From an uncultured Clostridia bacterium (GTDB lineage: Bacteria; Bacillota_I; Bacilli_A; RF39; UBA660), in the NCBI GenBank assembly GCA_947165135.1, contig CAMUZE010000005.1, positions 4,101 to 68,100 of the forward strand: a stretch of 64,000 bases of DNA. Direction: 5' to 3'. Made by a program: the position numbers and the translations under genes. The notes below the pieces were generated by a model. That model was given only the letters and a program-made list of their open reading frames with translations, was not told the origin of the DNA and searched no databases. How positions within the stretch are numbered: the stretch's first letter is position 1; each line of letters opens with the position of its first letter. Positions 1,298 through 22,417 of this stretch are shown here, in pieces.

Positions 1298-1302
1298 AAA
1301 TA

Positions 1303-4780: not shown

Positions 4781-5275
4781 ATGAGAACCATACCAACTAA
4801 AAATTATTTTCTAGTATTAGGTGTTTCTGTTCTAATAATAATTCTTACTTTATATTTAAGAGCATTTTATTTAAGTTATAAGGCATATAATGGTGATGTT
4901 AGTTATTTCACATTTAAAAAAGTAAGCCAAATAACTAAAGATGATTTTGATTTTATATTAACAGAATCTACAAATAATATATTGTATGTAGGATATAATT
5001 CTAGTAAACTTTATTCTATTGAAAAGAAACTATATAGAGAATTTGAAAAGAATGATTTATTAGATAGAGTTATTTATTGGAATGTTGATGATTATTTAGA
5101 AAATAATGATTATATACAAATTTTAAAGAACAAATTTCCAGATGTGGATATATATAGTGCGCCAGCAATTATAGTTATTGTTAATGGTGAAGCAAAAGAA
5201 TCTATAAAGATTGATGAAGATTCAATTAAAGATAAAAAAATAAAGAAAATAGTAGAAAGAAACCAATTAAATTAG
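4781..5275 (+). CDS. Membrane-anchored hypothetical protein (possible thioredoxin-like fold without CxxC)
   Basis: GGAGG RBS and one N-terminal TM (LVLGVSVLIIILTLYL). The soluble part shows a beta-alpha pattern but no redox motif. Confidence 0.6.
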   Translation: MRTIPTKNYFLVLGVSVLIIILTLYLRAFYLSYKAYNGDVSYFTFKKVSQITKDDFDFILTESTNNILYVGYNSSKLYSIEKKLYREFEKNDLLDRVIYWNVDDYLENNDYIQILKNKFPDVDIYSAPAIIVIVNGEAKESIKIDEDSIKDKKIKKIVERNQLN

Positions 5276-5367: not shown

Positions 5368-7044
5368 ATGAAGAAAAATATTATTTTAACAATATATGGC
5401 TCAACCCTTATTTATGATTTTAGAGAGTTAAATGGGGAAGAGAAAAAATTAGTTAATAAAAATGTTATTTCTAATAACACTCTTTTTTATACAATAAATT
5501 ATTTTAAAAAGAACTTGGATAATATAATATCAATTTTAGTTAACAATAATAATTACTATGATAGTGTAATTGTTAAGAAATTAGTGACATTTAAATATGT
5601 TGCCTATATAATGATGAGATTAAGAATACAATACTTAAAATTAGATTTTGCTTCAACTTTAGCACTAGATGATTATGAATTGTTTAGAGAAGTAGAAACA
5701 TTAAAACAAATAGATTGCTATTATATGCCAAATTTTATAGAGAAAAAGTTCGAAGAAAAAAATGTAATAGTTAATTTGTATAATTACAATAAAGTATCAG
5801 ACAGATTTATGTTACAACAAGATTCTTTAGATTATGAAACATTATATTATAGAAAAGTACTAGATATAAAAGAGGATTATCCTGGATTATTAGAAGATAT
5901 TAAAGAGTTTTTAAGAATTAATTATAATTTAAAAACTATAAATATTTATGTTTTTTCAAAGGAATTAATCTCTAATATAATAGATTTAGTTAAAAATGAT
6001 GAAGCTAGAGATGTAATAGTTTTCTTACATCAAAAAGATGATAGAGGAGGTTTTATAACTAGTAATTTTGACTGGTTAAAGAAACTTAATAAAACATGTA
6101 GAAATGAATATAAATGTGAATTTCGAATTGTTTATTCAAATTCATTCATTAAAAACAATTTATTTAAACAATTAACATTTAATAATTTAAAACTAATTAC
6201 AAGTTTATGTATATATATTAGTGTCGTTTCACTAATTATTATTAAATCATATGAATATATTGATAAAATTAATATTGATAAATTAAATGTCGATATCATA
6301 AATAGTACGTACGCTGCAAATAATAATAAAGAATTAGAACAATTAGAAGAAAGTAATTCTAATATTGAAAATGATATAATAGCTGATATTGAAGAGGAAA
6401 TTGCAGCAAACAAGGAAAAAAAGGTTACTAAAACTAGAGAAGAAATAATTGAAGATATGAAAAAGAAATATAAATTTGAAAAAGTCTTCGAAAATCTTAA
6501 AAAGATTAATAATGAAACAGTTGGGTATTTAGTTATTAATAATACAGAGATATCTTATCCAGTAGTTCAGCATTCAGATAATAATTATTATTTAAAACAT
6601 GATTTTTATAAAAAAAGCAAAAATGTTGGATGGATATTCATGGATTACAGAAATGATCCAAAAGATTTTGATGATAATACAATCATTTATGGACACTATT
6701 CTAGTGGATATGGAATTATGTTTGGAACACTTAAGAATATATTGACAACTAGTTGGAGAAGTAATAAAAACAATATGATTTTTACATTTGATACTCCAGA
6801 AGGAACAAAGAGATTTAAAATATTTGCAGGCTATAAAGTTGATTATACAACAGATTATTTAGTTACAAGTTTTGGAAATGAAAAAGATTTTAATAAATTT
6901 GTTGAAATGATAAGAGGAAGAAGTAATTTTACCACTGATGATGAGATAAATTATGGAGATAAAATTTTAACATTGTCAACATGTGCTGGTGGAGGAAACA
7001 GGAGACTAGTAATTCATGCAGTTTTATTAAAGGAGGAAGAATGA
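5368..7044 (+). CDS. Class B sortase catalytic domain fused to a ~275-aa N-terminal domain and a TM/coiled-coil linker
   Basis: The C-terminal ~185 aa carry sortase B hallmarks: NETVGYLVINNTEISYPVVQHSDNNYYLKHDF, IIYGH (His), LTLSTC (Cys) and NRRLVIHA (Arg). A TM segment lies near LITSLCIYISVVSLIIII, followed by an acidic coiled-coil linker. The N-terminal domain has no recognisable motif. Confidence 0.8.
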   Translation: MKKNIILTIYGSTLIYDFRELNGEEKKLVNKNVISNNTLFYTINYFKKNLDNIISILVNNNNYYDSVIVKKLVTFKYVAYIMMRLRIQYLKLDFASTLALDDYELFREVETLKQIDCYYMPNFIEKKFEEKNVIVNLYNYNKVSDRFMLQQDSLDYETLYYRKVLDIKEDYPGLLEDIKEFLRINYNLKTINIYVFSKELISNIIDLVKNDEARDVIVFLHQKDDRGGFITSNFDWLKKLNKTCRNEYKCEFRIVYSNSFIKNNLFKQLTFNNLKLITSLCIYISVVSLIIIKSYEYIDKINIDKLNVDIINSTYAANNNKELEQLEESNSNIENDIIADIEEEIAANKEKKVTKTREEIIEDMKKKYKFEKVFENLKKINNETVGYLVINNTEISYPVVQHSDNNYYLKHDFYKKSKNVGWIFMDYRNDPKDFDDNTIIYGHYSSGYGIMFGTLKNILTTSWRSNKNNMIFTFDTPEGTKRFKIFAGYKVDYTTDYLVTSFGNEKDFNKFVEMIRGRSNFTTDDEINYGDKILTLSTCAGGGNRRLVIHAVLLKEEE

Positions 7045-7679
7045 AGAGGGTATTAGCGATTTTGGCATTGCTTTTTCCAATGTTTATTAAAGCAGCCACG
7101 TGTGATTATAGCAAATTAAATGAGTATAACAAATTATCATCGAATGTTGATTATGAAGTGACAAGAGATAATAACTCAAATAGATATAAAATAACAATTA
7201 TGAATTTATATAATAATATGTATGTAAAATATAAAGGAGTTGCTTATACTTCTAATTCCAATAACGAAGCAGTTATAAATGGTATTGATGAAGGGGAAAA
7301 TTTAAGTATAATGTTATATGCTCCTTTATCCGATTGTGATCCATACTTAAAAACAATTAATGTTTCAACTCAGTACTATAATAGAATGTATAACGATAGT
7401 AGATGTATTAAATACAGAACTATATTGAATATATGTAAGTATGAATATTTATCATATAAAGCTACAGATTCTTTACTATCTTCTGCAATTAAGAATTATG
7501 AAAACTCATATAAAGAACCAGAAGAGGTAATAGAAGAAATAAAAGAAAAAACATTTTTAGAGAGTCTTGAAGACTTTATGATAAGCTGGGGCGTACAAAT
7601 CATATTGGTATTATTATCAAGTATAGTAACAATATCTATTTTCAAAGTTAAATATAGAAAAGTAAAACATGGAATTTAA
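7041..7679 (+). CDS. Secreted/tail-anchored 4-Cys protein, paralog 0 of the cassette family (212 aa)
   Basis: ATG at 7041 overlaps the sortase stop (ATGA) and follows AGGAGG. Signal peptide MKRVLAILALLFPMFIKA, four Cys (ATC, SDC, SRC..NIC), and a C-terminal TM plus basic tail (KVKYRKVKHGI). The track start at 6981 is an out-of-context extension. Confidence 0.7.
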   Translation: MKRVLAILALLFPMFIKAATCDYSKLNEYNKLSSNVDYEVTRDNNSNRYKITIMNLYNNMYVKYKGVAYTSNSNNEAVINGIDEGENLSIMLYAPLSDCDPYLKTINVSTQYYNRMYNDSRCIKYRTILNICKYEYLSYKATDSLLSSAIKNYENSYKEPEEVIEEIKEKTFLESLEDFMISWGVQIILVLLSSIVTISIFKVKYRKVKHGI

Positions 7680-7721
7680 TATTATTAATTCCGTGTTTTA
7701 ATATACTTTTTTTTATTATTT

Positions 7722-7730
7722 TGTTATAAT
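7722..7730 (+). promoter_or_regulatory. Extended -10 promoter (TGtTATAAT) of cassette 1
   Basis: TG at 7722-7723 and TATAAT at 7725-7730. The leader caatatgaaagtagg resembles the cassette 2 leader. Confidence 0.55.
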
Positions 7731-7751
7731 CAATATGAAAGTAGGATTATT

Positions 7752-8441
7752 ATGAAAAAAATAATAGCAATAATTTTTATGTTAATTATTAGTTTATCTT
7801 TCACAAAAGTAAAAGCATTATGTAATGATCTTGAAATAAATGATTTGGCAGAAAGATTCAATGCTATGTATATTGAACTTGACAATGGTGATATTGTTTT
7901 TAATGATTCGTCTCGCGTTGCTTATAGCAATGATTATTCATATGTCGTTTTTCTTTATCCATATTCAGAAAAATTAAAAGTTATTGTAACAGATTCTATT
8001 ACAAATAATAAGAGAGAAGTAAAAAAAGATAAAATCTTAGAAGCATTCTCTATACCATCATATATACACTATGAAAATAAAAAATATGATATAGAATTAT
8101 ATGGGGTAGATAATTCAGTGTGTAAAGGTGAGCTTTTAAAAACATTCAGTTTTGAAGTTCCAAAATTCAATGAGTATAGTATGTATGATCATTGTAAAAA
8201 TAACAAAGATGAAGATATTTGTAAAATGATGAATAATACAAGTGATATTAAACTAGAAGATTATGAAAAAATAGTAGAGAAAAGTAATGAAGATAATAAA
8301 ATAAAAAATATGTCTTTATTAGAACGATTAATATACTTTTCAAAAAAATATTGTCTATATGCTATAATTCCAATATTATTAATTTCAATATATTATACTA
8401 TCAAGATAAGTAAGTACAAAAAGAAGGTGGAAAACCAATAA
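7752..8441 (+). CDS. Secreted/tail-anchored 4-Cys protein, cassette 1 (229 aa)
   Basis: Signal peptide, conserved LNDLAE+FNA, PYS..LKV.V.DS, FNEYSMY..C.NNKDEDIC.MM, and a C-terminal TM plus KYKKKV tail. Roughly half the residues match 12838..13527 by eye. Confidence 0.8.
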   Translation: MKKIIAIIFMLIISLSFTKVKALCNDLEINDLAERFNAMYIELDNGDIVFNDSSRVAYSNDYSYVVFLYPYSEKLKVIVTDSITNNKREVKKDKILEAFSIPSYIHYENKKYDIELYGVDNSVCKGELLKTFSFEVPKFNEYSMYDHCKNNKDEDICKMMNNTSDIKLEDYEKIVEKSNEDNKIKNMSLLERLIYFSKKYCLYAIIPILLISIYYTIKISKYKKKVENQ

Positions 8442-11400
8442 TGAAAAGAAGGATAATATTATCATTAGCATTGTTTATTATTATTTTATTTCCAAATGTA
8501 TCATCAGCTTTGGAGAAAAAAACATACTCTCAAATATTGCAAGAAACGATTGATTTACAAAACGGAGAAGAAATTGGCCAAACTACTGAAACATGTATGG
8601 AATCCGATGATTCCGGTAAATATTATACTGCAAAGTGGAATGAAAATCTTGGTGATAAGGGAAGAGAACTTATTGGTGCTGTGTGGGCATGTAGACGTAA
8701 AGTGATATCTGTAGATACTAATCCTATTAAATATTCATATACTAGCACAAACAAAAACACAGCTGAAAGTAATGTAAAAAAAGATGTAGATGATAAAAAT
8801 GCTCAATATAAAATACCATCTTGCTGTAATTGGAAAGGAGATCCCAAAAAAGGTTATAGCTGTAGCGACAGTTCAGCGTGTAATCCTACAGTTTGTAGCA
8901 CTGTAACATGTACCTCAACAACATCATCTTCTGGTGGCGGAAGTGGAGGAAGTGGAGGAAGCGGAGGTGGCGGAGGTGGACGCGTCGTTATAAGAGTAGT
9001 TAGCCAGGCTCAAAAAATAATAACACCTATACCTATAAGAGAATTTACAACTTATTATAGCATTAAAGAGAGAATGAACTGTATTCCAGTTGATGGAGCC
9101 CTAGAAGAAATATGTGTTGCAGGTGATCCACCCGTAGGTGATGATGATTCTGGTGGAAATGGTGGTGGTGACTCTGGTAGTGGTTCTGGTGGTTCAACAA
9201 CCACTTATTGGACTTGTGAAGCAACTTGTCCAAATAGAATAGTAACTTTATCTGATTCAGAGTGTGATGAAGTTAAAGGTGGTCTGGATATAACTACTCC
9301 ACTATATGATATGGATATTGATGGTACCAAGTATGATGGTGATCCTATATATTGTCTACAGCCAGGGGCTAATGGACCTACAGCTGATGGACTTAAATAT
9401 ATTTTGGATACACAGTTAGATGTGGGTAGATGTCAAGACCAATATGTAGATAAAAATGATCAAAATGCAATTCAATGTGGACTTGCCCAAATATTGTATT
9501 TTGCTCATAATCATACAGTTAATAGTAAAGGTGAAGATGTTTGGACTCGTAAACCTGAATATACTGATGGAACAATCACACTAGCTTTAAGGCTTTGGAT
9601 GGCTGCTTATGCTAAAACTCCAAATGGTACTCCAACGTATCCATCTCAAATAACTGATCCTACATATACATACACAGATTCAGAAGGAATAGAAAATCCT
9701 GATGATTACGGAACATATCAAGCATTTAATGCCTCTTCTCCATTAGCTTGGGTACCTAGTGAAGATTATTATGATAAAACTGCTCAAAAAATAAAAAATG
9801 GTAAGAAATATGACACAAAAAATTCGCAAATATCTGAAACTAATAAAGATATTATATTTTGTGCGGACACTGAAAAAAGTGGAGAATGTGTAATAGATAA
9901 AGCTATTAAATTATTTCATGAAACCGAGAAAGTTAGTAAAGAAAACTTTTTAGGTGGGACAAATTTTAATAGAGAGGTACCTATTGTACAATATGAAGTT
10001 GATACTGGTATTTTTGAAGTAAAATTTGATAATAGAGATACAATTAGCAAGATAAAAGAAAATTGTGAAGATGTTAATGATCCTGAATGTCAAATAGAAG
10101 TAAGACTATTTTATGGTGATGAAGATGTAACTGACAAGAAAATAGATGGAGAAAATGTATTTAAATTTGAAAATATTAGTGATGGAATTCCATTCTGTGA
10201 TAAGAATTCATGTGTTGCTAAAATAATTAGAACAAAAGAATTCTGTATCGGTGGTGGATATGAAGAACTTAAGCTTGTCATAATATTTAAAAATTGGACA
10301 AGAAATTATGGATATGTTAGGTTATATACCGCTGCTAAGTCAGATCCAGAAAAGTATCAAAAAATGGTTTCATTTGGAATTAAACAAGAACAGTGTGAAT
10401 CTGAAAGTAGTGAATATAGGAATGGTAGAGTTGAAAAGCCAATCAAAATACCTTGTAATTGTACTCCAAATTCTTGTGATGATTTAAGTGCAACAGAAAG
10501 CCCTAGTAGTACAACTACATGTTTATCAAAGAAGACAATTAAAGATGCTAATATGAATTGTATTGTAAATTCATGTCCTCTTGATATTAATAATGAATTT
10601 GTTGTTACATCTAAGTATGGACTTAATCCACTTGTTTGTACAGTATATGAAAGAGATGAGAATGAACTATACTTGCCAGGAAAAACGACGGTATATTCTG
10701 GAATGCAATTCAGTTATGATTTGGCTAATGAATTAAAATCAAGTTTAAAATTAGATACCACTCATAAAATCACTGCGGTTGCAATGCAGAAAAAACAAAT
10801 AACATCTAAAATTAATTATGAATATTGGGAAAGAGAATACATAAGAAAACAAAACCTACTTTATTATTCATATTTAATGGGTTATAGTAATGAATATAAA
10901 AATGCGTTAATAACAGAAATAAATGATTGGATAAATGATTTAAATAATTGTAATTTTGTAAGTTCTGGAAAACAGAGCGATGCTATTCACAAGATAAATG
11001 TTGAAATATCTAACAAAGGAGATTGCAAAAATGATTCTTGTTCTAAAGTAAGTGTAAGATATGATGATTCTAATTATGGAATTGACAATCAATTAGCTGT
11101 ATCTACTGCGTTTAATAATGCAGAGATTAAAGACAGAGATGGAAGAAGCTATAGAAAATATTATAATATTACAAACAAAGGATTTGAAACAAGCCGCTCA
11201 GATGATAGTTCTATTCCATTAAATATGTATTATTGCACAAATTCGTCAAGAATCAATTGCTATGAATATGAAAATAAAAATACTGCTGTAGAAATAGTAA
11301 TGGCTAGTACTTCTAGTGGAAAAATAAAGAGTACAGCTAAATTCAAAAGGTATACGAGTTTGAGTGATTCAGAAGCTCAAGCAGGATTTACATATATAAG

Positions 11401-12337
11401 TGATGATACACTACGTAAGTATAATTGCAGCGGAAGCAATTGTTCTTATTCTGCATTAGATATTCCACAAAATGATTATGTAACAATAATTTATAACGTA
11501 GAGCATGATTATTATAATGATAAGAATTATAAAGCAGAAGCGTATACGGGCGTCGCTGTAGAAGAGGCACTAACAAGTGAAGAGCAAAAGGCAATAGCTG
11601 ACGGTTCTGCTAAATATGTTCCTCTAGATAAATACGTATATCCAATATCAGTTAATAGTAAAACTGGTGAATATCCAGTGTACTTCACTTTCAGTAATAT
11701 TAAAAACAGATATAGAAAAAGCTCAAACGGGACAACAATTATCGATGGGGATAAATATAGTAATAGTTGTTTTTACAAAGTATATAACATAACAACATCT
11801 TATGATTGTGATGTTATGGATGAAAATGGAAAAATGGATTTATCGAAGTGTCAGGATACTAAATATAAAGTAGTTAAAGGTGTGCCAGAAATAGATGAAA
11901 GTAAAGTACTTTGGGAGACAACTGATGATGGGACACAATATGGATTTATTTTCAGAACTGTTGCACTAGATGATTTATTTCCTAATTCTAAAGTAACTCA
12001 AAATGGTATTAGTTCTCGTGCATCAAGTATAAATTGGAGCGACAAAAAAAATGTAATAGAGGAAATTGAAAATGGTGCTGATACAATATTTAGTGATTCT
12101 GAAAAACTAGAATATAGTTATACTTTAACTCCACAAGGAATAAAGGAAATTAAAGAATATAATGATAATTCTTTAGATTCTGGTGGATATTTAAACTCAA
12201 CATTAATTAATTGTAAAATTGATAATGATGAAACTGGATTAAAAAAATTTAAAAATTGTAAGAGTACATTCTTAGAAGATATTAGAAATAAAAAATTCCC
12301 AGGTGTAGAAACAAACAAGGATGATGTTTTACAATGA
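8441..12337 (+). CDS. Giant secreted Cys-rich protein, cassette 1 (1298 aa), putative pilus-associated adhesin
   Basis: Start overlaps the upstream stop (TAATG). Sec signal peptide MKRRIILSLALFIIILFPNVSSA, two Gly/Ser linkers, many Cys, and no C-terminal TM or sorting motif. Colinear homology to 13524..16988. Confidence 0.85.
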   Translation: MKRRIILSLALFIIILFPNVSSALEKKTYSQILQETIDLQNGEEIGQTTETCMESDDSGKYYTAKWNENLGDKGRELIGAVWACRRKVISVDTNPIKYSYTSTNKNTAESNVKKDVDDKNAQYKIPSCCNWKGDPKKGYSCSDSSACNPTVCSTVTCTSTTSSSGGGSGGSGGSGGGGGGRVVIRVVSQAQKIITPIPIREFTTYYSIKERMNCIPVDGALEEICVAGDPPVGDDDSGGNGGGDSGSGSGGSTTTYWTCEATCPNRIVTLSDSECDEVKGGLDITTPLYDMDIDGTKYDGDPIYCLQPGANGPTADGLKYILDTQLDVGRCQDQYVDKNDQNAIQCGLAQILYFAHNHTVNSKGEDVWTRKPEYTDGTITLALRLWMAAYAKTPNGTPTYPSQITDPTYTYTDSEGIENPDDYGTYQAFNASSPLAWVPSEDYYDKTAQKIKNGKKYDTKNSQISETNKDIIFCADTEKSGECVIDKAIKLFHETEKVSKENFLGGTNFNREVPIVQYEVDTGIFEVKFDNRDTISKIKENCEDVNDPECQIEVRLFYGDEDVTDKKIDGENVFKFENISDGIPFCDKNSCVAKIIRTKEFCIGGGYEELKLVIIFKNWTRNYGYVRLYTAAKSDPEKYQKMVSFGIKQEQCESESSEYRNGRVEKPIKIPCNCTPNSCDDLSATESPSSTTTCLSKKTIKDANMNCIVNSCPLDINNEFVVTSKYGLNPLVCTVYERDENELYLPGKTTVYSGMQFSYDLANELKSSLKLDTTHKITAVAMQKKQITSKINYEYWEREYIRKQNLLYYSYLMGYSNEYKNALITEINDWINDLNNCNFVSSGKQSDAIHKINVEISNKGDCKNDSCSKVSVRYDDSNYGIDNQLAVSTAFNNAEIKDRDGRSYRKYYNITNKGFETSRSDDSSIPLNMYYCTNSSRINCYEYENKNTAVEIVMASTSSGKIKSTAKFKRYTSLSDSEAQAGFTYISDDTLRKYNCSGSNCSYSALDIPQNDYVTIIYNVEHDYYNDKNYKAEAYTGVAVEEALTSEEQKAIADGSAKYVPLDKYVYPISVNSKTGEYPVYFTFSNIKNRYRKSSNGTTIIDGDKYSNSCFYKVYNITTSYDCDVMDENGKMDLSKCQDTKYKVVKGVPEIDESKVLWETTDDGTQYGFIFRTVALDDLFPNSKVTQNGISSRASSINWSDKKNVIEEIENGADTIFSDSEKLEYSYTLTPQGIKEIKEYNDNSLDSGGYLNSTLINCKIDNDETGLKKFKNCKSTFLEDIRNKKFPGVETNKDDVLQ
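8924..8980 (+). repeat. Low-complexity GGN/AGY triplet run encoding SSSGGGSGGSGGSGGGGGG
   Basis: Imperfect gga-agt-gga/ggt-ggc reiteration, locally much more GC-rich than its surroundings. A second Gly/Ser run lies at about 9139..9205. Confidence 0.8.
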
Positions 12338-12516
12338 AACAAGCATTCTGGGCATATGCAGTAGTAGCATTTGGAGTAGTAATAGTAGTAGTAATGCTAT
12401 TTATACAAAGAATGACAATAACAACAGAAGAGAACTATTATTTAGAAAAAGAAATATTAGAGTCCTCCATGATAGACGCAGTAGATTATGGAACATATAA
12501 AAAACAGGAAAAATAG
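12334..12516 (+). CDS. 60-aa single-TM ORF (probable N-terminal half of a split ~138-aa gene), cassette 1
   Basis: ATGA overlap with the giant ORF. Reads MKQAFWAYAVVAFGVVIVVVMLF (TM). It terminates just after an A6 tract, and the -1 frame is open from 12501 into the next ORF. Confidence 0.6.
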   Translation: MKQAFWAYAVVAFGVVIVVVMLFIQRMTITTEENYYLEKEILESSMIDAVDYGTYKKQEK

Positions 12517-12518
12517 TA

Positions 12519-12752
12519 ATGTCAGAGCAAAAATTTGTAGAAGTATTTATAAGAAGATTTGCAGAAAGTGTAACAAATAATAAAACGTATCAATTAAACT
12601 TCTATGACATAAAAGAAGAACCACCAAAAGCTACTGTAAGGATAAGAACTGCAGCAGGATCAACAAATATAAATTCAGAATCATTTGATGTAAATTTAGA
12701 TACAACATTAAGTGGAATATTAGAAACCATTTATGGAACAAAAAGTAATTAA
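12519..12752 (+). CDS. 77-aa ORF (probable C-terminal half of the split gene), cassette 1
   Basis: ATG lies 2 nt after the upstream stop, with a weak AGGAAA 9 nt upstream. The product is soluble and beta-rich, and the ORF is followed by a strong terminator. Confidence 0.6.
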   Translation: MSEQKFVEVFIRRFAESVTNNKTYQLNFYDIKEEPPKATVRIRTAAGSTNINSESFDVNLDTTLSGILETIYGTKSN

Positions 12753-12785
12753 AAGTTTAGATTGATTTCTAAACTTTTTAATTTT
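12751..12785 (+). terminator. Rho-independent terminator of cassette 1
   Basis: 11-bp stem aaaagtttaga / tctaaactttt with a 6-nt loop and a T-rich tail. Confidence 0.8.
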
Positions 12786-12806
12786 ATGTACTTTATTTAT
12801 ATAATG

Positions 12807-12815
12807 TGATATAAT
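12807..12815 (+). promoter_or_regulatory. Extended -10 promoter (TGaTATAAT) of cassette 2
   Basis: TG at 12807-12808 and TATAAT at 12810-12815. The leader caaaattgaaagtagg is homologous to the cassette 1 leader. Confidence 0.55.
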
Positions 12816-12837
12816 CAAAATTGAAAGTAGGTGTCAC

Positions 12838-13527
12838 ATGAAAAAAATAAAAACATTATTTTTTGTATTATCACTTTTGATTTTTATGCCAAAATTATTT
12901 GCGGTATGTGATGATGCTGATTTAAATGATTTAGCAGAAAAATTTAATGCTGGATATATTGAAGATAGTGAACAAAAAATAAAACTTGAAGATGGGAGTT
13001 ATAAAGTATATAAAAAGGAATATGCTTATTTAATTGTATTTACTCCATATTCAAAAGATTTGAAAGTAGTGGTGAATGATTCAATTTTAAAAGAGAATCA
13101 AGAAGCAACTTATAGTGAAAGAAGAGGGACATATGTTATAGGATCTGATATTCATTATAAAGAGAAAGTATATACCGTTAATGTATATGGAAATGAAAAG
13201 TCTGCTTGTCCTAATCAATTATTGAAAACTTTAAGTTTTACAATACCACCTTTTAATGAATATAGTATGTACACATATTGTGAAAACAATAAAGACGAAG
13301 ATATATGTACTATGATGAAAGACACAAGCGATGTTACAATGAGTGAGTATAAAGAAATTGTTGCTGATAATATTGAAAATAAAAAGATAGAAAAAATGAA
13401 TTTTTTTGAAAAGGTACTATATTATATTTCAAAATATTGGATTTTTGTAGCAGTACCTGTATTATTGATTTCGACATATTATATTGTTACAATTATAGTA
13501 TATAAAAAGAAGGTGAACAAACGATGA
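12838..13527 (+). CDS. Secreted/tail-anchored 4-Cys protein, cassette 2 (229 aa)
   Basis: Paralog of 7752..8441 with the same length, the same Cys pattern (AVC, SAC, YC.NNKDEDIC), and a C-terminal TM plus YKKKVNKR tail. Confidence 0.8.
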   Translation: MKKIKTLFFVLSLLIFMPKLFAVCDDADLNDLAEKFNAGYIEDSEQKIKLEDGSYKVYKKEYAYLIVFTPYSKDLKVVVNDSILKENQEATYSERRGTYVIGSDIHYKEKVYTVNVYGNEKSACPNQLLKTLSFTIPPFNEYSMYTYCENNKDEDICTMMKDTSDVTMSEYKEIVADNIENKKIEKMNFFEKVLYYISKYWIFVAVPVLLISTYYIVTIIVYKKKVNKR

Positions 13528-16500
13528 AAAAGAAAGTATTATTTTTACTACTACTATTAGTTTTATTATTTGGATACAAAACGTTTGTTTTTGCTGATGA
13601 AACAGAATATACTACAGCAGTTTGTACTGATGATGAAAGCGGTAAAGTACACATAAGATGGGACAAACAGAAAGAACATGTTGGTGCTGTATATGTATGT
13701 TATTATCCTGTTGTATCAGCATTTGAAACAGTAACAGGTGAATTTGATACTGAAGCTGAGGCTGAAGCATACGCTCATGAGATACAAGGTGGATATACAA
13801 TACCTCATTGCTGTCATACAACTGATGTAAAAGAAACTGGATGTTCTGGTGCTGTTTGTAAGGAACCAGAATGTAAAGTTGACCCTATCACTAGAACATA
13901 TAGGCCAAGTTTGGGTGGTGCATCTATACTTGCAGGTGGAAGTGTAACTTTAAGTGTATCTAATATGCCTCCAAATTGTAGTGTTAGTTGGAGTTCTAAT
14001 GCTCCAGGTGGAACCTTTAGTTCAAGTACTGTTGGAACATATACAGTAACCGCATCATTATCATGTGGGCCAGTATTAAGTGCAACAGTTACAGTAGCAG
14101 ATCCATTATCAGGTGCAAATACTGAAGCAGCAATGAAGAATTATTCTACATCAAATAAAATAAAAGCAGTTGATTCTGTGAGTAGTTCTTCTGGTACTGT
14201 AACAGTAATAACTGGATATTCTGTAAATTGTGAGGTACCTCATGTAACTTATGACAAAACAAAATGCTATCCTGGAGATAAAGAAATAATATCAATTAGT
14301 TATGAAATAAATTTAAAAGATGACAAATATGAAGGAGATTCTGTATATTGTTTACAACCCGGTGCAACTGGGCCAGGACCTGATAGTACAGGTCTTCCAT
14401 ATATAGAAGATATGAATTTTGATATTTCTGTATGTCAGGATCAATATACTAACAAGAATGATAAGAATGCTGTACAATGTGGACTTGCACAACTACTTTA
14501 TCAAACTTATAATTGTGATAGAACAACAGGAAAATGCACACCAAAAGGAGAATATTCAAATGGAGTTATAACACTTGCTTTGAGACTTTGGATGGCTGCA
14601 TATGGAAAAGATACGTATTCTTTGGGTACAACATCTGAACTTGAAGACAATCCATTATTAGATTGGATACCTAGAGAAGATTATTATCAAGTCACTGCAG
14701 ACCTTATTAAGAACGGATGCGCTAAAACAGGTAAAAAATGTTATGATACAAGCTATGATGCACTTCAAAAAGATAAAGTATTAGGTAGAATTGGATGTAC
14801 AAAATCTGAAAGTGCTAAAAAGAGTACTGATCCAAGTTTTAAGTGTGATATAGATAAAGCCATAGAACTATTCCATAATACAGAAAATGTGAAAAAGCAA
14901 GATTTTTTAGGCGGAATTAACTTCGATAAAAAAGTTCCTGTATTCAAATATGAAGAAGATCAAGGAATTATTAAAGTTGAATTTGATGAAATTGAAGATG
15001 TTGAAGAAATAAATGTAGATTGTAAACCTGGAGAACCCGGATGTACATTAAAAATTAGATTTTATTATGGGGATATAGATGTAACCGATTTGGTTGAATT
15101 AGGCGAATGGTCATGCGAGAAGAATACATGTACTGCTAAAGTAATTGGTACAAAATTCTGTTTAAAATATAAGACACCAGGTGTAACAGTTTTAAGAGCT
15201 GTACTTGAAATATCAAACTGGAAAAGAAATAATGGTTATGTAAGATTCTATACTCATGCAACATCACCTAATAAATATCAAAAGATGATATCATTTGGTC
15301 TTCTATTAGAAGAATGTGAAGAAGCACAGGAGGCACAAAAGAAGTTATATATTCCGGGTGAGGTTAGAATAGATTGTCCTTGTGATGATAAGTGTGATGA
15401 TTTAAGTTCGAAAGAAACTGATAATAAAGAATGTAGTGGATATAGTAAAATTACTGATGCAAATATGAACTGTATTGTTAATGCTTGCTTCAAGATAGAT
15501 ACATATAAATATAATGTTTCATCAAAATATATTGTTAACCCACTAGTTTGTACATTATACGAAAGACAAGAAAATGAATTCTATCTACCAGAAAAAACAA
15601 GCGTATATGCAGGTATGCAATTTAGTTATGACCTTGGGGCAACACTAGGAATAAAGACAATATCTAGTAACATGGATCCTAGTCCAAAACTAACAAGTAT
15701 TGTTAAACAAAGAAAACAAGTTACATCTGAGATTAATTATTCGTTCTGGAAATCAGAATATGATAGAAAATTAAATAGACTATCTTATGCTTATGAACAA
15801 GGTTATAGTGATGAATATAAGAAACAATTAAAAGCTGAAATTAACGAATGGTTATTTGACCTTAAGAATTGTAATTTATATACTCCAGTTCAAACAGGAG
15901 CTAGTGATACACGTTCACATGCTATTAATAATATTTTAAGCAGTGCAAATTGTAGTGGAGAAAAATGTTTAAATATGGACATTACTTATGGTGATGTAAA
16001 ATATGGTAAGGATGTTGATCCTCTAGTTGATATTAGTGAGGTTTTAACTAGCGATGGATATGAGCTATATTATTGTAAAAACAATGGAAACGAAGATAAA
16101 TGTTATAGATTTGATAAAAATAATGCAGTTGAAGTTAAGGAAAATAATAAAGTTGAAACTGTAGATTATTATAGTGGAAAAGTAAAAATCCCAACTAATG
16201 ATTATGCTACTATAGTAATTGATATTGAACATGATTTCTATCAAGCAACTAAATATAAAACAAGAGCATATACTGGTGTTGTTGAAAAAGGTGAAATAAC
16301 AAAAGGAGAAACTAAAAAATATACACCATTAAGCGATTATTCTTACCCTGTATCTGGTAGTAGCAAAACAGGCGAATATCCTGTTAATATCAAAATATCA
16401 AATATAGGTAATTTAGGTAGAAAATCAACGAACTATGCATATGCATGTAAATATCAAGTTTACAATAGAACAACTGCTTATGATTGTGCTGCATTAGATA

Positions 16501-16988
16501 AAAATGGAAATATCGACCTTTCTAAATGTCAAGATGCAAATTATAAAGTAGAAAATGGTATTCCAAAAATCGATGATAGTCAAATTAGTTGGAGTTCAAC
16601 CGATAGTAAAAACAATGGATTTGTATTTAAAAATGTTGATTTAAGTAATTTATTCCCTAATGGTTTAGATAGTTTAAATTCAGATGTTAACTGGACAGGT
16701 AAAGAAGAAGATATCAAAGAAATTGAAAATACAGCTGATACAATATTTACTGATGAGTCTTACTTACAATATAGTTACACAATAACTCCACAAGGAATGA
16801 AAGAAATTAAAGATTACAACACTAATAATTTAAGTGATGGAGGATATTTAAATTCAACATTATTAGATTGTAGTGTTATAAATGATGATACTGGATTACA
16901 ACAATTTAGAAATTGTAAGAGTACATTCTTAGAGGAAATTAGAAGTTATGCTGGAGTAACTGTTAATAAGGAAGGTGGTTCAAAATGA
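13524..16988 (+). CDS. Giant secreted Cys-rich protein, cassette 2 (1154 aa), putative pilus-associated adhesin
   Basis: ATGA overlap with the upstream gene and signal peptide MKKKVLFLLLLLVLLFGYKTFVFA. An Ig-like beta-rich segment (GGSVTLSVS..TYTVTASL..TVTVADP) replaces the Gly/Ser linkers of copy 1. It shares the conserved YCLQPGA.GP core and C-terminal domain with copy 1. Confidence 0.85.
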   Translation: MKKKVLFLLLLLVLLFGYKTFVFADETEYTTAVCTDDESGKVHIRWDKQKEHVGAVYVCYYPVVSAFETVTGEFDTEAEAEAYAHEIQGGYTIPHCCHTTDVKETGCSGAVCKEPECKVDPITRTYRPSLGGASILAGGSVTLSVSNMPPNCSVSWSSNAPGGTFSSSTVGTYTVTASLSCGPVLSATVTVADPLSGANTEAAMKNYSTSNKIKAVDSVSSSSGTVTVITGYSVNCEVPHVTYDKTKCYPGDKEIISISYEINLKDDKYEGDSVYCLQPGATGPGPDSTGLPYIEDMNFDISVCQDQYTNKNDKNAVQCGLAQLLYQTYNCDRTTGKCTPKGEYSNGVITLALRLWMAAYGKDTYSLGTTSELEDNPLLDWIPREDYYQVTADLIKNGCAKTGKKCYDTSYDALQKDKVLGRIGCTKSESAKKSTDPSFKCDIDKAIELFHNTENVKKQDFLGGINFDKKVPVFKYEEDQGIIKVEFDEIEDVEEINVDCKPGEPGCTLKIRFYYGDIDVTDLVELGEWSCEKNTCTAKVIGTKFCLKYKTPGVTVLRAVLEISNWKRNNGYVRFYTHATSPNKYQKMISFGLLLEECEEAQEAQKKLYIPGEVRIDCPCDDKCDDLSSKETDNKECSGYSKITDANMNCIVNACFKIDTYKYNVSSKYIVNPLVCTLYERQENEFYLPEKTSVYAGMQFSYDLGATLGIKTISSNMDPSPKLTSIVKQRKQVTSEINYSFWKSEYDRKLNRLSYAYEQGYSDEYKKQLKAEINEWLFDLKNCNLYTPVQTGASDTRSHAINNILSSANCSGEKCLNMDITYGDVKYGKDVDPLVDISEVLTSDGYELYYCKNNGNEDKCYRFDKNNAVEVKENNKVETVDYYSGKVKIPTNDYATIVIDIEHDFYQATKYKTRAYTGVVEKGEITKGETKKYTPLSDYSYPVSGSSKTGEYPVNIKISNIGNLGRKSTNYAYACKYQVYNRTTAYDCAALDKNGNIDLSKCQDANYKVENGIPKIDDSQISWSSTDSKNNGFVFKNVDLSNLFPNGLDSLNSDVNWTGKEEDIKEIENTADTIFTDESYLQYSYTITPQGMKEIKDYNTNNLSDGGYLNSTLLDCSVINDDTGLQQFRNCKSTFLEEIRSYAGVTVNKEGGSK

Positions 16989-17167
16989 AACAAGCATTCT
17001 GGGCATATGCAGTAGTAGCATTTGGAGTAGTAATAGTAGTAGTAATGCTATTTATACAAAGAATGACAATAACAACAGAAGAGAACTATTATTTAGAAAA
17101 AGAAATATTAGAGTCCTCCATGATAGACGCAGTAGATTATGGAACATATAAAAAACAGGAAAAATAG
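16985..17167 (+). CDS. 60-aa single-TM ORF, cassette 2 (identical to 12334..12516)
   Basis: Identical nucleotide and protein sequence, and the same ATGA coupling to the giant ORF. Confidence 0.6.
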   Translation: MKQAFWAYAVVAFGVVIVVVMLFIQRMTITTEENYYLEKEILESSMIDAVDYGTYKKQEK

Positions 17168-17169
17168 TA

Positions 17170-17403
17170 ATGTCAGAGCAAAAATTTGTAGAAGTATTTA
17201 TAAGAAGATTTGCAGAAAGTGTAACAAATAATAAAACGTATCAATTAAACTTCTATGACATAAAAGAAGAACCACCAAAAGCTACTGTAAGGATAAGAAC
17301 TGCAGCAGGATCAACAAATATAAATTCAGAATCATTTGATGTAAATTTAGATACAACATTAAGTGGAATATTAGAAACCATTTATGGAACAAAAAGTAAT
17401 TAA
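17170..17403 (+). CDS. 77-aa ORF, cassette 2 (identical to 12519..12752)
   Basis: Identical nucleotide and protein sequence. Confidence 0.6.
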   Translation: MSEQKFVEVFIRRFAESVTNNKTYQLNFYDIKEEPPKATVRIRTAAGSTNINSESFDVNLDTTLSGILETIYGTKSN

Positions 17404-17436
17404 AAGTTTAGATTGATTTCTAAACTTTTTAATTTA
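17402..17436 (+). terminator. Rho-independent terminator of cassette 2
   Basis: Same hairpin as 12751..12785. Confidence 0.8.
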
Positions 17437-17472: not shown

Positions 17473-17509
17473 TAAGTAGAATAGAAATAATAGGATGGTG
17501 GAAAAAAGA

Positions 17510-18340
17510 ATGAGTAACATTTTATATGGAATCAAAAGATTCATAAAGAACAAAAATACTGTGACAATTATAGCAATAGTGGCTTCACTTGTTATAATTT
17601 ATTTTGCGTATAATGCAAGAATTAAAAAGGCAACTGAGCCACAATTAGTACCATATGCTTTACAAGATTTAGCACCTAGAACATTGATAACATCTGAAAT
17701 GGTAGGGACAAGAAAAGTACCAGGAAGCGTAATAACTCCAAATGTTATTACAAGTAAAAATTCAATTATAGGAATGTATGTAAGTAATAAAGTTCAAATT
17801 CCAAAAGATAGTTTGTTCTATAGAAATACGTTGTTGACTTGGGATGAATTACCATCAAGTTTATATGAAAATATTCCTGAAGGTAATACAATTGTTGCAT
17901 TACCTGTGTCAAGTGAAACAACATATGGAAACTCTATATTTGAAGGAAACTATATAGATTTATATTATTCTGGTAGAGATACAGATGGAAAAATATTAGT
18001 TGGAAAATTTATTGAAAGTATTAAAGTATTAGCAGTAACTGATAGTGCATTTAATAATATATTTGAAAAGAGTTCTGATGTTGCGCAACCTGCATATTTA
18101 GTATTCTCTGTTCCAGAAGAAATGCACCTATTATTAAGAAAAGCTTTGTATTTAAATGGAAATATATATCCGGTGCCAAGAAATGCTGAGTATTCAAAAA
18201 ATCCTAAAAACACAAGAATTAGTAGTTCATATATTGAAAATTTAATATTAAATCAAACTGTTAATGTTACCTCAAAAGATTTGAGTGGAGTAAGTATTAA
18301 AGAAATTGAAAATAAACAAACTCAAGGAGGTGAACAATAA
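17510..18340 (+). CDS. CpaB/RcpC-like pilus assembly protein, paralog 1
   Basis: N-terminal TM, a SAF-like segment (LAPRTLITSEMVGTRKVPGSVI..IIGMYV..IPKDSLF), then GNTIVALPVSSETTYGNSIFEGNYIDLYY, typical of CpaB. The ATG at 17510 has a GGTGGA RBS. The track start at 17495 lacks one. Confidence 0.7.
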   Translation: MSNILYGIKRFIKNKNTVTIIAIVASLVIIYFAYNARIKKATEPQLVPYALQDLAPRTLITSEMVGTRKVPGSVITPNVITSKNSIIGMYVSNKVQIPKDSLFYRNTLLTWDELPSSLYENIPEGNTIVALPVSSETTYGNSIFEGNYIDLYYSGRDTDGKILVGKFIESIKVLAVTDSAFNNIFEKSSDVAQPAYLVFSVPEEMHLLLRKALYLNGNIYPVPRNAEYSKNPKNTRISSSYIENLILNQTVNVTSKDLSGVSIKEIENKQTQGGEQ

Positions 18341-19092
18341 TGTTAAAAAGAGTATTAGGAAATAAAGGACTTGTAACATTAATTGCAATGGTAGTATGTA
18401 TAGTTATTCTATTTTTTGCCTATAAGTATAGAGTTGATAGAGAAATAAAAGCAACATCTGTACCATATGCAATTGCCGATATTCCTGCAAGAACAGAAAT
18501 AACAGAAGAATTAGTTGGAACTGTTAAAGTTGCATCTTCAATGGTTACAAGTACAGTAATTACAAATAAAAATAATGTTATTGGAAAATATGTTAATTAT
18601 AATACATACATTCCAGCGGGAAGCTTGTTTTATTCACCTTCAGTTGTGACGTGGGATTATATGCCAGATTCAGCATGGAGAAACATGTATAATGATTATA
18701 CAATCGTTTCACTTCCAGTTAGTAGTACAACTACTTATGGTAACTCAATTTTTCCAGGAGATAAGATAGATTTATATTATCATACTACTGACAATGGGAA
18801 ATTAGTTTATGGCAAGTTAATCGAAGGTATTGAGGTTTTAGCTGTAAAAGATAGCGATGGAAGTCATATATTCAAGAAGAGTTCTGATCAAAGAGATGCA
18901 GCTGCATTAATTTTCTCAGTTCCAGAAGACTTACATATTTTATTAAGACAAGCAATTTATATTTCAGGAACAAGTAGTTTAGTTCCAGTGCCAAGAAATG
19001 CTAATTATAATCCAACTACTACAATAAGTAGCGAATATTTAAAATCATTAATTAAAAATCAAACAAAAGAAGTACCACTTGATAGTGAATAA
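18340..19092 (+). CDS. CpaB/RcpC-like pilus assembly protein, paralog 2
   Basis: Same architecture as paralog 1 (IPARTEITEELVGTVKV.., YTIVSLPVSSTTTYGNSIFPGDKIDLYY). AGGAGGTGA RBS and a TAATG overlap with the upstream gene. Confidence 0.7.
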   Translation: MLKRVLGNKGLVTLIAMVVCIVILFFAYKYRVDREIKATSVPYAIADIPARTEITEELVGTVKVASSMVTSTVITNKNNVIGKYVNYNTYIPAGSLFYSPSVVTWDYMPDSAWRNMYNDYTIVSLPVSSTTTYGNSIFPGDKIDLYYHTTDNGKLVYGKLIEGIEVLAVKDSDGSHIFKKSSDQRDAAALIFSVPEDLHILLRQAIYISGTSSLVPVPRNANYNPTTTISSEYLKSLIKNQTKEVPLDSE

Positions 19093-19132: not shown

Positions 19133-20272
19133 ATGGATGATGTTGTTTTTTCGCAAATAGATTTTGGTGTGCTTGTTCCATTACTTCAAGATGATGATGT
19201 AACAGATATTTCATATTCGAATGGTGGCCAGTTATGGATAAAAACATTAACTCAAGGTGTAAAACCATGTCATGTTGATGGGCTAAACAATGAAGTTATG
19301 GAAAAATTAGCATTTCAATGCTCTAACGTCATGGGAAAAACATTTAATATGGCGCATCCATTATTAGATGCCGAGAGTGCTGAGCTGCGTCTTAATTTCG
19401 TACATGAATCTATCGCAACTAATGGAATTGCTGTACTTATTAGGAAAACGCCAGCAAAAATAAGATTAAAAAAAGAGAAACTAATTGAAGAAGATTATGT
19501 ATCTGTTAACTTACATGACTTTTTAATAACTTGTGTTACTGGACACTGCAATATACTTGTTAGTGGAGAAACTGGTTCAGGTAAAACAGAGCTGATTAAA
19601 TACTTAGCAAGTCATATTAAGGAAGATGAAAAAATAATTACTATTGAAGATACATTAGAGCTTCATTTAGATAAAATTTATCCAACAAGAGATATTGTGG
19701 CAATGAAAACAAATAATATTGCTTCATATTCTGATGTTCTTGTTGCGTGTATGCGTCAGAACCCAAGATGGATTTTACTATCAGAGGTCCGTTCTGCAGA
19801 AGCTGTTATGGCTGTACGTAACTCAATCTCATCAGGACACAATATTTTGTCTACAATACACTCAGATAAAGCATCAAGTATACCTATGCGTTTATATTCA
19901 CTTTTAGAAACAAGCCAAGATATTGATCAATTTGTAAAAGGTATGCATAGATATATACAATTGGGAATACATGTTAAAGGTTTCTTTTCAAAGAAATATA
20001 ACAGATTCCAAAGAGAAATAACGCAAGTAGTTGAGTTTTATGTAGATGATGTTGAAAATATAGCAAAAGTTAATGTATTATATGCGAGGGATTTAATGGG
20101 AAATGAAACATATAATAATCCAACTTCACACCTGATAGATTATTTGGCATCTCAAGGAGTTCAAATGAGAGAAGATCCATTTATTCCTAAGGATTCAGGA
20201 TTACAGACTTCAACTGAAAGTAATCCTGTTGAAAATAGTCAACCCAGCAGTGTAGAAGTTTTAGATATATAA
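19133..20272 (+). CDS. tadA: CpaF/TadA-type secretion ATPase (VirB11/T2SSE superfamily)
   Basis: Walker A GETGSGKTE, Asp box ITIEDTLEL, Walker B region RQNPRWILLSEVR, and His box GHNILSTIH. It sits next to two T2SSF-type membrane proteins. Confidence 0.85.
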   Translation: MDDVVFSQIDFGVLVPLLQDDDVTDISYSNGGQLWIKTLTQGVKPCHVDGLNNEVMEKLAFQCSNVMGKTFNMAHPLLDAESAELRLNFVHESIATNGIAVLIRKTPAKIRLKKEKLIEEDYVSVNLHDFLITCVTGHCNILVSGETGSGKTELIKYLASHIKEDEKIITIEDTLELHLDKIYPTRDIVAMKTNNIASYSDVLVACMRQNPRWILLSEVRSAEAVMAVRNSISSGHNILSTIHSDKASSIPMRLYSLLETSQDIDQFVKGMHRYIQLGIHVKGFFSKKYNRFQREITQVVEFYVDDVENIAKVNVLYARDLMGNETYNNPTSHLIDYLASQGVQMREDPFIPKDSGLQTSTESNPVENSQPSSVEVLDI

Positions 20273-22074: not shown

Positions 22075-22359
22075 ATGAAAGAAGCGAGTGGAGAATTAAA
22101 TATGACAGTTGTTACTATAGTAGCAGTTGCTGCTGTAGGAGCACTATTCTATGTATTTATTTGGCCAGTAATCCAAAGAAGCATTGTATCACAAACTTGT
22201 AAAACATATGGAAATGACTGGAGTGCAGTAGAAGTCGATGGTGAAGCTGATATAAACACTGGATCAAACGCAAAAGTAAAAGTTTGGATGTGTTGTCCAG
22301 CTGATGCTAGTGGCAATGTTGATAAGACTAGCAGTAGTTGTGTAAAAGCTGAACAATAA
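22075..22359 (+). CDS. Small pilin-like protein (94 aa), candidate major pilin
   Basis: Short charged leader MKEASG, then a ~22-aa hydrophobic helix (LNMTVVTIVAVAAVGALFYVFIW) and a small Cys-containing globular part. It has its own promoter and terminator and occupies the flp position after tadC. The canonical Flp G/xxxxEY motif is absent. Confidence 0.5.
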   Translation: MKEASGELNMTVVTIVAVAAVGALFYVFIWPVIQRSIVSQTCKTYGNDWSAVEVDGEADINTGSNAKVKVWMCCPADASGNVDKTSSSCVKAEQ

Positions 22360-22380
22360 AATATTTAGTAAAAATAAAAT

Positions 22381-22417
22381 GCTATAAATGTCATGTGTGG
22401 CATTTATAGTTTTTTTA
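22381..22417 (+). terminator. Rho-independent terminator after the pilin-like gene
   Basis: Stem ctataaatg / catttatag with a 10-nt loop, followed by a T7 run. Confidence 0.75.

Follow-up and report, generated by a model that had tools for sequence, protein, structure and literature searches.

Two tandem three-gene modules as the predicted variable payload of a conserved sortase and Tad-like locus in uncultured Bacilli

Results

Tandem cassettes and their gene content

The window analyzed here is a 64,000-nucleotide (nt) stretch of DNA from an uncultured bacterium that was deposited as Clostridia and is placed by GTDB in Bacilli_A (RF39, UBA660); it covers positions 4,101 to 68,100 of the forward strand of contig CAMUZE010000005.1 (assembly GCA_947165135.1), and all coordinates below are positions within it. 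Our subject is a pair of tandem gene cassettes at 7722-17435, each encoding a 229-amino-acid (aa) membrane protein (p229), a giant exported protein, and a small protein of the family DUF5411, which lie between a sortase region and genes resembling those of Tad pilus systems. A previous reading, made from the DNA letters and their open reading frames (ORFs) and referred to here as the sequence-only reading, had described the pair as a duplicated four-gene adhesin cassette. The ORFs were found in our ORF map where that reading had placed them, and the features of the two cassettes are as follows.

7722-7751, + strand: cassette 1 promoter and leader; extended -10 element TGTTATAAT (7722-7730) and ribosome-binding site (RBS) GAAAGTAGG (7737-7745), kept between the paralogues and in the sister genome L001
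7752-8441, + strand: p229a, 229 aa; signal peptide, 4 conserved Cys, C-terminal transmembrane (TM) segment, Lys-rich tail
8441-12337, + strand: giant A, 1298 aa with 43 Cys; signal peptide, variable N-terminal third rich in Gly/Ser, and conserved core
12333-12784, + strand: repeat block, 452 nt, 100% identical to 16984-17435; DUF5411 gene and terminator
12334-12752, + strand: DUF5411 copy 1; 60-aa N-terminal half at 12334-12516, 77-aa C-terminal half at 12519-12752, lesion within 12499-12505
12754-12779, + strand: cassette 1 terminator, AT-rich hairpin and T-run; -10.8 kcal/mol, z -3.06
12807-12837, + strand: cassette 2 promoter and leader; TGATATAAT (12807-12815), RBS GAAAGTAGG (12823-12831)
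12838-13527, + strand: p229b, 229 aa; 45% identical to p229a, L001 orthologue 82% identical
13524-16988, + strand: giant B, 1154 aa with 43 Cys; signal peptide and an Ig-like insert spanning roughly aa 130-195 (Big_3, weak)
16985-17403, + strand: DUF5411 copy 2, split by an identical frameshift; 60-aa N-terminal half at 16985-17167, 77-aa C-terminal half at 17170-17403
17405-17430, + strand: cassette 2 terminator, AT-rich hairpin and T-run; -10.8 kcal/mol, z -3.2

The common layout proposed for the two cassettes reflects true paralogy. The p229 proteins, previously judged by eye to match at roughly half of their residues, align at 45% identity with no gaps (E = 3e-69), and the giants, previously called colinear, align at 37% identity along their entire length (E = 0.0), their homology running from end to end and not being confined to short motifs. 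The strong divergence that had been noticed in the N-terminal part of the giants falls in the first ~260 aa, which are poorly conserved, with conservation being higher beyond. Because both copies have their own orthologues in the independent assembly of the sister genome L001, the tandem duplication of this promoter-to-terminator unit is genuine rather than an assembly artefact, and it is old, predating the split of the window lineage from that genome.

Each cassette indeed opens with the extended -10 promoter and homologous leader ascribed to it (TGnTATAATCAA..GAAAGTAGG, at 7722-7745 and 12807-12831) and closes with a terminator consisting of a hairpin and a T-run (-10.8 kcal/mol, z about -3). 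The region has a G+C content of ~25%, with content and skew uniform across it, and at this composition a consensus promoter scan was uninformative (92 hits versus 74 expected), while a consensus terminator scan misses AT-rich hairpins, and cross-genome conservation and RNA folding were used instead. A TGnTATAAT ... AGTAGG(T/A)G footprint precedes p229 in almost every one of the related loci, even at ~35% protein identity, and because the extended -10 element and RBS are conserved across loci despite this protein divergence, a real p229 promoter is well supported. Rfam and tRNA scans of the window returned no RNA genes.

The gene content of the cassettes has to be revised in one important respect, as each carries three genes instead of the four proposed. 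The 60-aa and 77-aa ORFs, which had been counted as separate genes with distinct products made in fixed stoichiometry, are pieces of a single DUF5411 gene (PF17424). Likewise, the proposal that every junction is translationally coupled stands for the TAATG and ATGA overlaps, which are present, but not for the 2-nt gap between the two small ORFs, which is a frameshift lesion and no coupling device.

The DUF5411 gene and its frameshift

The 60-aa ORF matches positions 1-58 of DUF5411 (66.2 bits) and the 77-aa ORF positions 63-132 (81.0 bits) of a hidden Markov model (HMM) that has 134 positions and a gathering score of 30 bits, and because these are adjoining parts of a family that is intact in relatives, the two ORFs are halves of one gene. 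Orthologues in relatives span positions 1-133 unbroken, related loci have a single gene of 134-492 aa at this place, and the split version in the window is the only one among 124 homologue clusters, the rest being continuous or incomplete on very short contigs. The sister genome encodes ...DYGTYRTTGKIVMSEQKF... in a single frame, and intact orthologues are 139 aa long. The lesion is a 1-nt deletion that is identical in both cassettes. An intact allele, otherwise 100% identical to the repeat of the window, is found on a 633-nt metagenome contig (L023; ENA ERZ14209546, coverage 1.7); there TATAGAACAACAGG stands in place of TATAAAA-AACAGG, the window sequence having undergone G>A and the loss of C. 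If the frameshift is real, neither module has an intact DUF5411 in this strain, which would point to recent decay or to an off state.

DUF5411 proteins begin with MK[EHQ][SA]xW[GA]Y followed by a hydrophobic helix; their alignment has no class III signal peptide or prepilin motif and no Glu at +5. In an AlphaFold2 (AF2) model (predicted local distance difference test [pLDDT] 79), a helix spanning residues 2-48 is followed by two short helices and a three-stranded sheet, a lollipop shape that is reminiscent of pilins, and DUF5411 is thus modeled as an N-terminal membrane helix with a small α/β ectodomain. DUF5411 genes of 355-492 aa in five related loci (L009, L010, L016, L019, and L021) encode C-terminal extensions, which contain Flg_new/InlB B-repeat or Peptidase_C39-like domains and in several cases no known domain. 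Because the long variants carry such domains, the C terminus of DUF5411 faces outward, and DUF5411 can act as a display anchor.

An identical 3' block shared by the cassettes

A further feature, missing from the description in the sequence-only reading, is that the cassettes share a 452-nt stretch (12333-12784 and 16984-17435) that is 100% identical, with identity falling abruptly on either side. It extends from one base ahead of the DUF5411 start codon to just beyond the terminator. The sister genome carries its own identical pair, which is 474 nt long and 92.5% identical to the block of the window, whereas the DUF5411 pairs of other two-module genomes are only 74-83% identical. Since DUF5411 copies cluster by genome while p229 and the giants cluster by orthology, gene conversion would have acted separately in the window and sister lineages; the within-genome identity of DUF5411 and terminator thus indicates gene conversion, or possibly repeat collapse in assembly.

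The L023 contig joins the 3' end of giant A, the intact DUF5411 gene, and sequence from upstream of the first CpaB-like gene. Either recombination between the repeats has removed cassette 2, or the junction is an artefact of traversing the assembly graph at a coverage of 1.7x.

Related loci and repeated duplication of the module

The cassettes belong to a syntenic chromosomal locus of ~20 genes that is conserved in metagenome-assembled genomes (MAGs) of uncultured low-GC rumen and gut Bacilli, and our synteny set comprised 17 distinct loci and the window. These MAGs are variously labelled Bacilli, Mollicutes/Mycoplasmatota, Erysipelotrichaceae, or Clostridium sp. CAG:1000, and their sources include goat omasum, Hadza gut, and human-gut collections (HGM and MGYG-HGUT). 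The gene order is a UvrD/PcrA-type helicase, X856, a PedC-like gene, a class B sortase fusion, p232, and one or two p229-giant-DUF5411 modules, followed by two CpaB genes, a CpaF-type ATPase, mem299, mem265, s94, s162, p323, s124, and an LtaS-like gene.

A survey of cassette copy number in relatives, which the sequence-only reading had proposed as a check, found one module in 10 loci with both flanks visible and two modules in 6 genomes (the window, L001, L004/L006, L008, L009, and L016). In neighbor-joining trees (200 bootstraps), four CAG-1000 paralogues are monophyletic (100% bootstrap); L004 and L008 share two older module types, X and Y, in an order that is inverted between them (98-100%; L004 4826-15308 and L008 9285-19099); and the A and B copies of the window and its sister are mutual closest relatives among those sampled (100% for giants and 62% for p229). 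Orthologue pairs of the giants, too, are recovered at 100%. Because these three groups separate in the trees, at least three independent module duplications plus rearrangement are implied. The p229 tree is congruent with the giant tree, and therefore each p229 co-evolves with its adjacent giant.

In the distant locus L024, DUF5411 remains beside CpaB, and the p229-giant pairs precede the PedC-like and sortase genes; in L004 the first giant has no following DUF5411, with two DUF5411 genes (140 and 338 aa) after the second giant. Because of these arrangements, p229 and the giant appear to be the movable pair, and DUF5411 is suggested to belong with the machinery.

Comparison of the window with its sister genome shows that p229 and the giants evolve several times faster than the machinery; the following ratios of nonsynonymous to synonymous substitution rates (dN/dS) are rough because dS is near saturation.

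Machinery (ATPase, platform, CpaB, and sortase): aa identity 92-97%, dN/dS 0.02-0.05
p229: aa identity 77-82%, dN/dS 0.14-0.15
Giants: aa identity 69-76%, dN/dS 0.17-0.19

Within the giants, the ratio reaches its maxima (0.41-0.44) at residues 101-200 of giant B, which contain the Ig-like insert, and at residues 824-924 of giant A.

The giants are an unannotated family of predicted exported proteins

By sequence, the giants are predicted to be an unannotated family of exported proteins without a relative in Pfam or PDB. They have a Sec-type signal peptide and no further hydrophobic segment, and their C terminus is a polar tail that lacks a sorting signal (LPXTG-like motif, hydrophobic segment, and basic tail). 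The number of Cys residues per giant is 37-68, of which 34 are invariant in a 12-sequence alignment, and the invariant motifs include [YF]C[LIV]Q[PQ][GS], ALR[LM]W, and YAGMQFSYD. A search with giant B returned only 13 clusters at 90% identity, and a profile search returned 308 clusters among 1.84 billion representatives. No Pfam domain was found in any giant except for an occasional Flg_new insert and the weak Big_3 match in giant B, and neither sequence and profile searches of PDB nor Foldseek gave a significant match to the core; Foldseek with the giant B model returned local Ig-like similarities only (Rib and LigA), which are confined to the insert. A match to lambda gpJ was dismissed (E = 3e-3, probability 0.04).

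Thioester-domain (TED) adhesins are recognized by a Cys motif together with a Gln-containing motif of the TQxA[IV]W type. The [YF]C[LIV]Q[PQ][GS] motif, which was invariant in all 25 giants examined (aa 275-280 of giant B, at about 14346-14363, with an equivalent in giant A), resembles the first of these, and the partner Gln motif is absent. We rejected a TED assignment, as the second invariant motif, ALR[LM]W, has no Gln and there is no Pfam TED match. The labels "adhesin" and "tip of one filament", which the sequence-only reading had given to the giants, are both without support from any fold or family match.

Flanking sortase, PedC-like, and Tad-like genes

The modules are flanked by the following features.

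4781-5275, + strand: PedC-like (thioredoxin-fold) membrane-anchored protein; PF20207 on the L001 and L004 orthologues, found in 14 related loci
5368-7044, + strand: class B sortase fusion; sortase domain at aa 345-540, long N-terminal region, one TM segment (aa 273)
7041-7679, + strand: p232, 212 aa from its true start; Cys-containing domain between a signal peptide and a C-terminal TM segment
7671-7712, + strand: terminator-like hairpin 3' of p232, GGAATT-N10-AATTCC then T-run; weak (-6 kcal/mol, z -1.8)
17495-19092, + strand: two CpaB/RcpC-like proteins, 281 and 250 aa; PF16976 E = 8e-6 and 1.5e-5
19133-20272, + strand: CpaF/TadA/VirB11-type secretion ATPase; PF00437 E = 6e-29
20285-21981, + strand: mem299 and mem265, 299 and 265 aa with 3 TM segments each; candidate TadB/TadC-like platform proteins
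22075-22931, + strand: s94 and s162; MKEAxG leader then hydrophobic helix, pilin-like by eye

The sortase domain (PF04203, E = 2e-12; TIGR03064, 149.6 bits, slightly below the cut-off of 153.75) is preceded by a fused N-terminal region of ~270 aa and one TM segment. The sortase gene is joined to p232 by an ATGA overlap, the true p232 start being at 7041 and the pair occupying window positions 5368-7679. A profile comparison (hhalign) identified p232 as a distant paralogue of the p229 family (probability 96.8%, E = 2.8e-10). The C terminus of p232 carries an invariant RK[IV]KHGI ending after its TM segment. No LPXTG or NPQTN motif is recognizable in p229 or p232, though in both of them a basic tail follows the C-terminal TM segment; p232 is a candidate non-canonical sortase substrate, and it is only a speculation that the sortase might act on both p232 and p229. 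As p229 has an N-terminal signal peptide in addition to its C-terminal TM segment, it is a type I membrane protein and not tail anchored as had been thought.

The PedC-like gene is kept in all 14 related loci for which the upstream region was recovered, beside genes for Cys-rich exported proteins, which besides the giants include p229 and s94, both with conserved Cys. This combination suggests a dedicated disulfide-forming step.

Downstream of the modules, the surroundings are of the Tad/type IV filament kind. CpaF is the nearest solved structure to the ATPase (E = 8e-21), followed by FlaI and VirB11, while its scores with the NCBIfam models of VirB11 and TadA stay below their cut-offs for equivalogs. 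The two CpaB-like proteins score 26.2 and 25.3 bits with PF16976 (gathering score 28.8), and a match to TIGR03177 has E = 4.7e-12 (45.7 bits, cut-off 71). The proteins mem299 and mem265 have three TM segments around a cytoplasmic domain of ~145 aa, and their size, topology, and position are TadB/TadC-like; their column identity is ~90% across genomes whose giants are ~35% identical, and paralogy between the two was unsupported by hhalign. The leader of s94 reads MKEA[ST]G-ELNMTV, and hhalign likewise gave no support for paralogy of DUF5411 with s94 or s162. In outline, the locus would work as a Tad or type IV filament system with large accessory proteins, but because a Flp pilin, a prepilin peptidase, and a T2SSF domain were not detected in the window, it should be called Tad-like rather than Tad.

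After the pilin-like genes follow p323 (22945-23916), a cytoplasmic protein of 323 aa with ~96% aa identity to its L001 orthologue (dN/dS 0.03), and s124 (23971-24345), a small two-TM hairpin protein with a Cys-rich C terminus, whose orthologue in L004 (21911-22255) has a weak match to PF18895 (T4SS_pilin). p323 has no Pfam match and shows by eye a degenerate ParA/MinD-like P-loop (THAGATT), and it may be a TadZ/CpaE-like protein.

Discussion

Our results lead us to propose, with a probability of roughly 0.6, that the two tandem three-gene modules are the variable payload of a conserved sortase and Tad-like locus, with the giants predicted to act at the cell surface. The sequence-only reading had seen in the cassettes two divergent surface modules on a common conserved base; the fast evolution of the p229-giant pairs, the identical DUF5411 ends, and the conserved machinery fit this picture, which is plausible but unproven.

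We can envisage how such modules might work. The giants would be disulfide-rich, surface-exposed proteins, possibly adhesins, and disulfide stabilization fits because a PedC-like oxidoreductase lies in the locus; each p229 might handle or tether its cognate giant and help to present or assemble it; DUF5411 could be the shared adaptor that connects the giants to a single downstream CpaF-driven apparatus; and the presence of two modules would then provide one cell with two alternative surface specificities. We regard the odds for this mechanism as about even. A bolder version, in which the locus builds an as yet undescribed hybrid sortase and Tad-like surface organelle with interchangeable disulfide-bonded giants, their p229 partners, and a shared gene-converted DUF5411 adaptor, and in which duplication and shuffling diversify binding, is one that we hold only tentatively and consider doubtful as a whole.

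A number of observations weigh against the payload proposal. Surface location, adhesion, and filament association of the giants are all predictions from their genes. For giant B, AF2 yielded a weak model (pLDDT 65.8, predicted template modeling score 0.41) without a significant PDB match, and no 100-codon block of either giant has a dN/dS above 1 between the window and its sister, every block being below 0.45, on values that are themselves rough. Foldseek of the DUF5411 model against PDB found no pilin (best E-value 0.04), and a PDB profile search was negative as well. On the side of the machinery, mem299 and mem265 gave no T2SSF domain and no other Pfam or PDB profile match; s94 has no Flp motif (G/XXXXEY) and no Pfam or PDB profile match; s162 has no Pfam pilin match; and no GxGD-type prepilin peptidase motif occurs in any ORF of the window, though a peptidase may be encoded elsewhere in the genome. 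A frameshift in both DUF5411 copies would disable both modules if DUF5411 is required. Assembly or polishing error is a serious possibility as the origin of this frameshift: of the three sources, all of which have the giants and p229s, the Logan re-assemblies do not contain the 60-aa and 77-aa products, which are on record solely from the 73,910-nt contig as held by NCBI/ENA. Finally, short-read metagenome assemblers can homogenize near-identical repeats, and the 100% identity of the block may be overstated.

These last points lead to the alternative that the duplication is real while both the 452-nt identity and the frameshift are assembly or polishing artefacts, two intact DUF5411 genes having been collapsed into one consensus that was written twice. 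The confinement of the split products to one copy of the contig is in line with this, as is the fact that the window differs from the L023 allele by two clustered changes (G>A and the deleted C) in an A-rich stretch; moreover, all other genes of the locus are unbroken relative to L001, and the repeat is the place where the contigs L002 and L023 start, stop, or switch. Against it, the independent L001 assembly also has an identical pair with its own allele, just as concerted evolution predicts, and the lesion is no simple homopolymer miscount relative to the known alleles. Overall, we consider this alternative possible but improbable.

It is also conceivable that the giants are structural parts of an apparatus spanning the envelope or secreted cargo of a type II secretion system (T2SS)-like machine, with p229 serving as an assembly factor or membrane receptor and the duplication giving rise to subfunctionalized structural paralogues. 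At least one giant is present in every locus, the C-terminal two thirds of these proteins are well conserved (34 invariant Cys and the motifs YC[LIV]QPG, ALR[LM]W, and YAGMQFSYD), all dN/dS blocks stay under 0.45, and no adhesin family or fold match exists, all of which such a role would accommodate. However, among the large genes of the locus those for the giants evolve fastest, the N-terminal third of these proteins accepts swappable Ig-like, Flg_new, or Gly/Ser inserts, and module copy number differs between close relatives. Such traits are more typical of proteins that face a host or substrate than of core machinery, and we judge a structural or cargo function to be unlikely.

Even less probable, in our estimation, is that cassette 2 arrived by horizontal transfer and homologous recombination, with DUF5411 and the promoter as homology arms, and not by duplication in situ. 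Modules do move, as shown by the p229-giant pairs that sit elsewhere in L024 and by the inverted cassette order between L004 and L008, and identical DUF5411 blocks are natural recombination substrates; but the A and B giants of the window and its sister are closest to each other among all sampled (100% bootstrap, with 62% for p229), and G+C content and skew are uniform across the region. Recoding of the split DUF5411 gene as a regulated or phase-variable device, whether through transcriptional slippage on the A6 run or through a -1 ribosomal slip (on A AAA AAC, or at AAA-TAG), can be set aside as very improbable. A -1 shift anywhere in 12499-12513 would give a 139-aa product colinear with orthologues (the -1 frame is open from 12501), and runs of six and five A residues adjoin the stop codon at this A-rich site, but all the other ~120 homologue clusters, the nearest alleles included, are in frame and without the A-run, so that the feature is not conserved, the heptamer is out of the canonical register, and no stimulatory structure turned up, although no search was aimed at one.

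Returning to the proposal of a variable payload, tandem duplication in itself is ordinary for surface-protein genes, and the interest of the locus lies in an uncharacterized system with a clean evolutionary partition between payload and base. Fast-evolving p229-giant pairs, a homogenized DUF5411, and at least three duplications together predict which parts face the environment and which parts dock with the machinery. For annotation, the two small ORFs should be treated as one broken gene instead of new micro-proteins.

The only published mention of DUF5411 that our literature search found is an operon in the gut Clostridia Roseburia, Ruminococcus, and Eubacterium that contains CpaF, PilC/GspF, DUF5411, and InlB-like genes and was predicted to be "secretion-related" (Miller et al. 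2022, PMC9523054); it has 8-9 genes, was predicted by a computational method only, and is uncharacterized. Both that operon and the present locus belong to Gram-positive gut bacteria and have DUF5411 next to membrane proteins and an ATPase of the CpaF type, and InlB-type Flg_new repeats are found here on the DUF5411 proteins of relatives and on one giant. In contrast to the operon, the present locus comprises ~20 genes in uncultured Bacilli; its additional components are the giants, p232/p229, a PedC-like protein, and a class B sortase, and it has no detectable PilC/GspF domain. The DUF5411-CpaF association is thereby extended to a different lineage with extra components, and an orphan family gains a concrete genomic role beside a CpaF-type motor.

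Tad/type IVc pilus systems are built from CpaF/TadA, TadB/C, TadZ, CpaB/RcpC, Flp, and TadV (PMC6668835, PMC11300603). The locus resembles them in having an ATPase closest to CpaF, two CpaB-like genes, and two half-size 3-TM proteins in the TadB/TadC position, followed by small proteins in which a short leader precedes a hydrophobic helix, and differs from them in that a Flp motif, a prepilin peptidase, and a T2SSF domain were not found in it. To our knowledge, a sortase, a PedC-like protein, and giant Cys-rich modules are no part of described Tad loci.

Two further comparisons concern the modules themselves. In type IVa pili, large tip proteins of the PilY1/PilC type work together with minor pilins, and here too the gene for a large non-pilin exported protein lies beside those for a type IV filament ATPase and for small proteins anchored by a helix; no sequence or fold similarity of the giants to those tip proteins was found, and a tip location would be hypothetical. 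PilB and PilC of Streptococcus sanguinis are modular minor pilins of type IV pili, in which adhesive domains are grafted onto a small N-terminal helix-plus-sheet module (PMC8179133, PMC9934059), and the long DUF5411 variants likewise carry Flg_new or Peptidase_C39-like domains at their C terminus, both being from monoderm hosts. Unlike PilB and PilC, DUF5411 has no class III signal peptide (G-1/E+5) or detectable pilin fold, and in the window it would be a bare 139-aa module, with the large protein being separate and Sec exported.

Other kinds of locus were considered and rejected. A conjugative type IV secretion system (T4SS) was discarded, as the locus genes scanned gave no VirB4, VirD4, or relaxase match and only a VirB11/CpaF-like ATPase and the weak T4SS_pilin match of the L004 s124 orthologue, and a phage or mobile island was rejected because of gene content and conserved chromosomal synteny. 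Because the helicase-side arrangement is shared by the window and the distant L024, the locus is chromosomal and no mobile island; in both (window 27-3907 and L024 1-4707), the locus is immediately preceded by a UvrD/PcrA-type helicase gene and a gene for a protein of ~860 aa without a family match.

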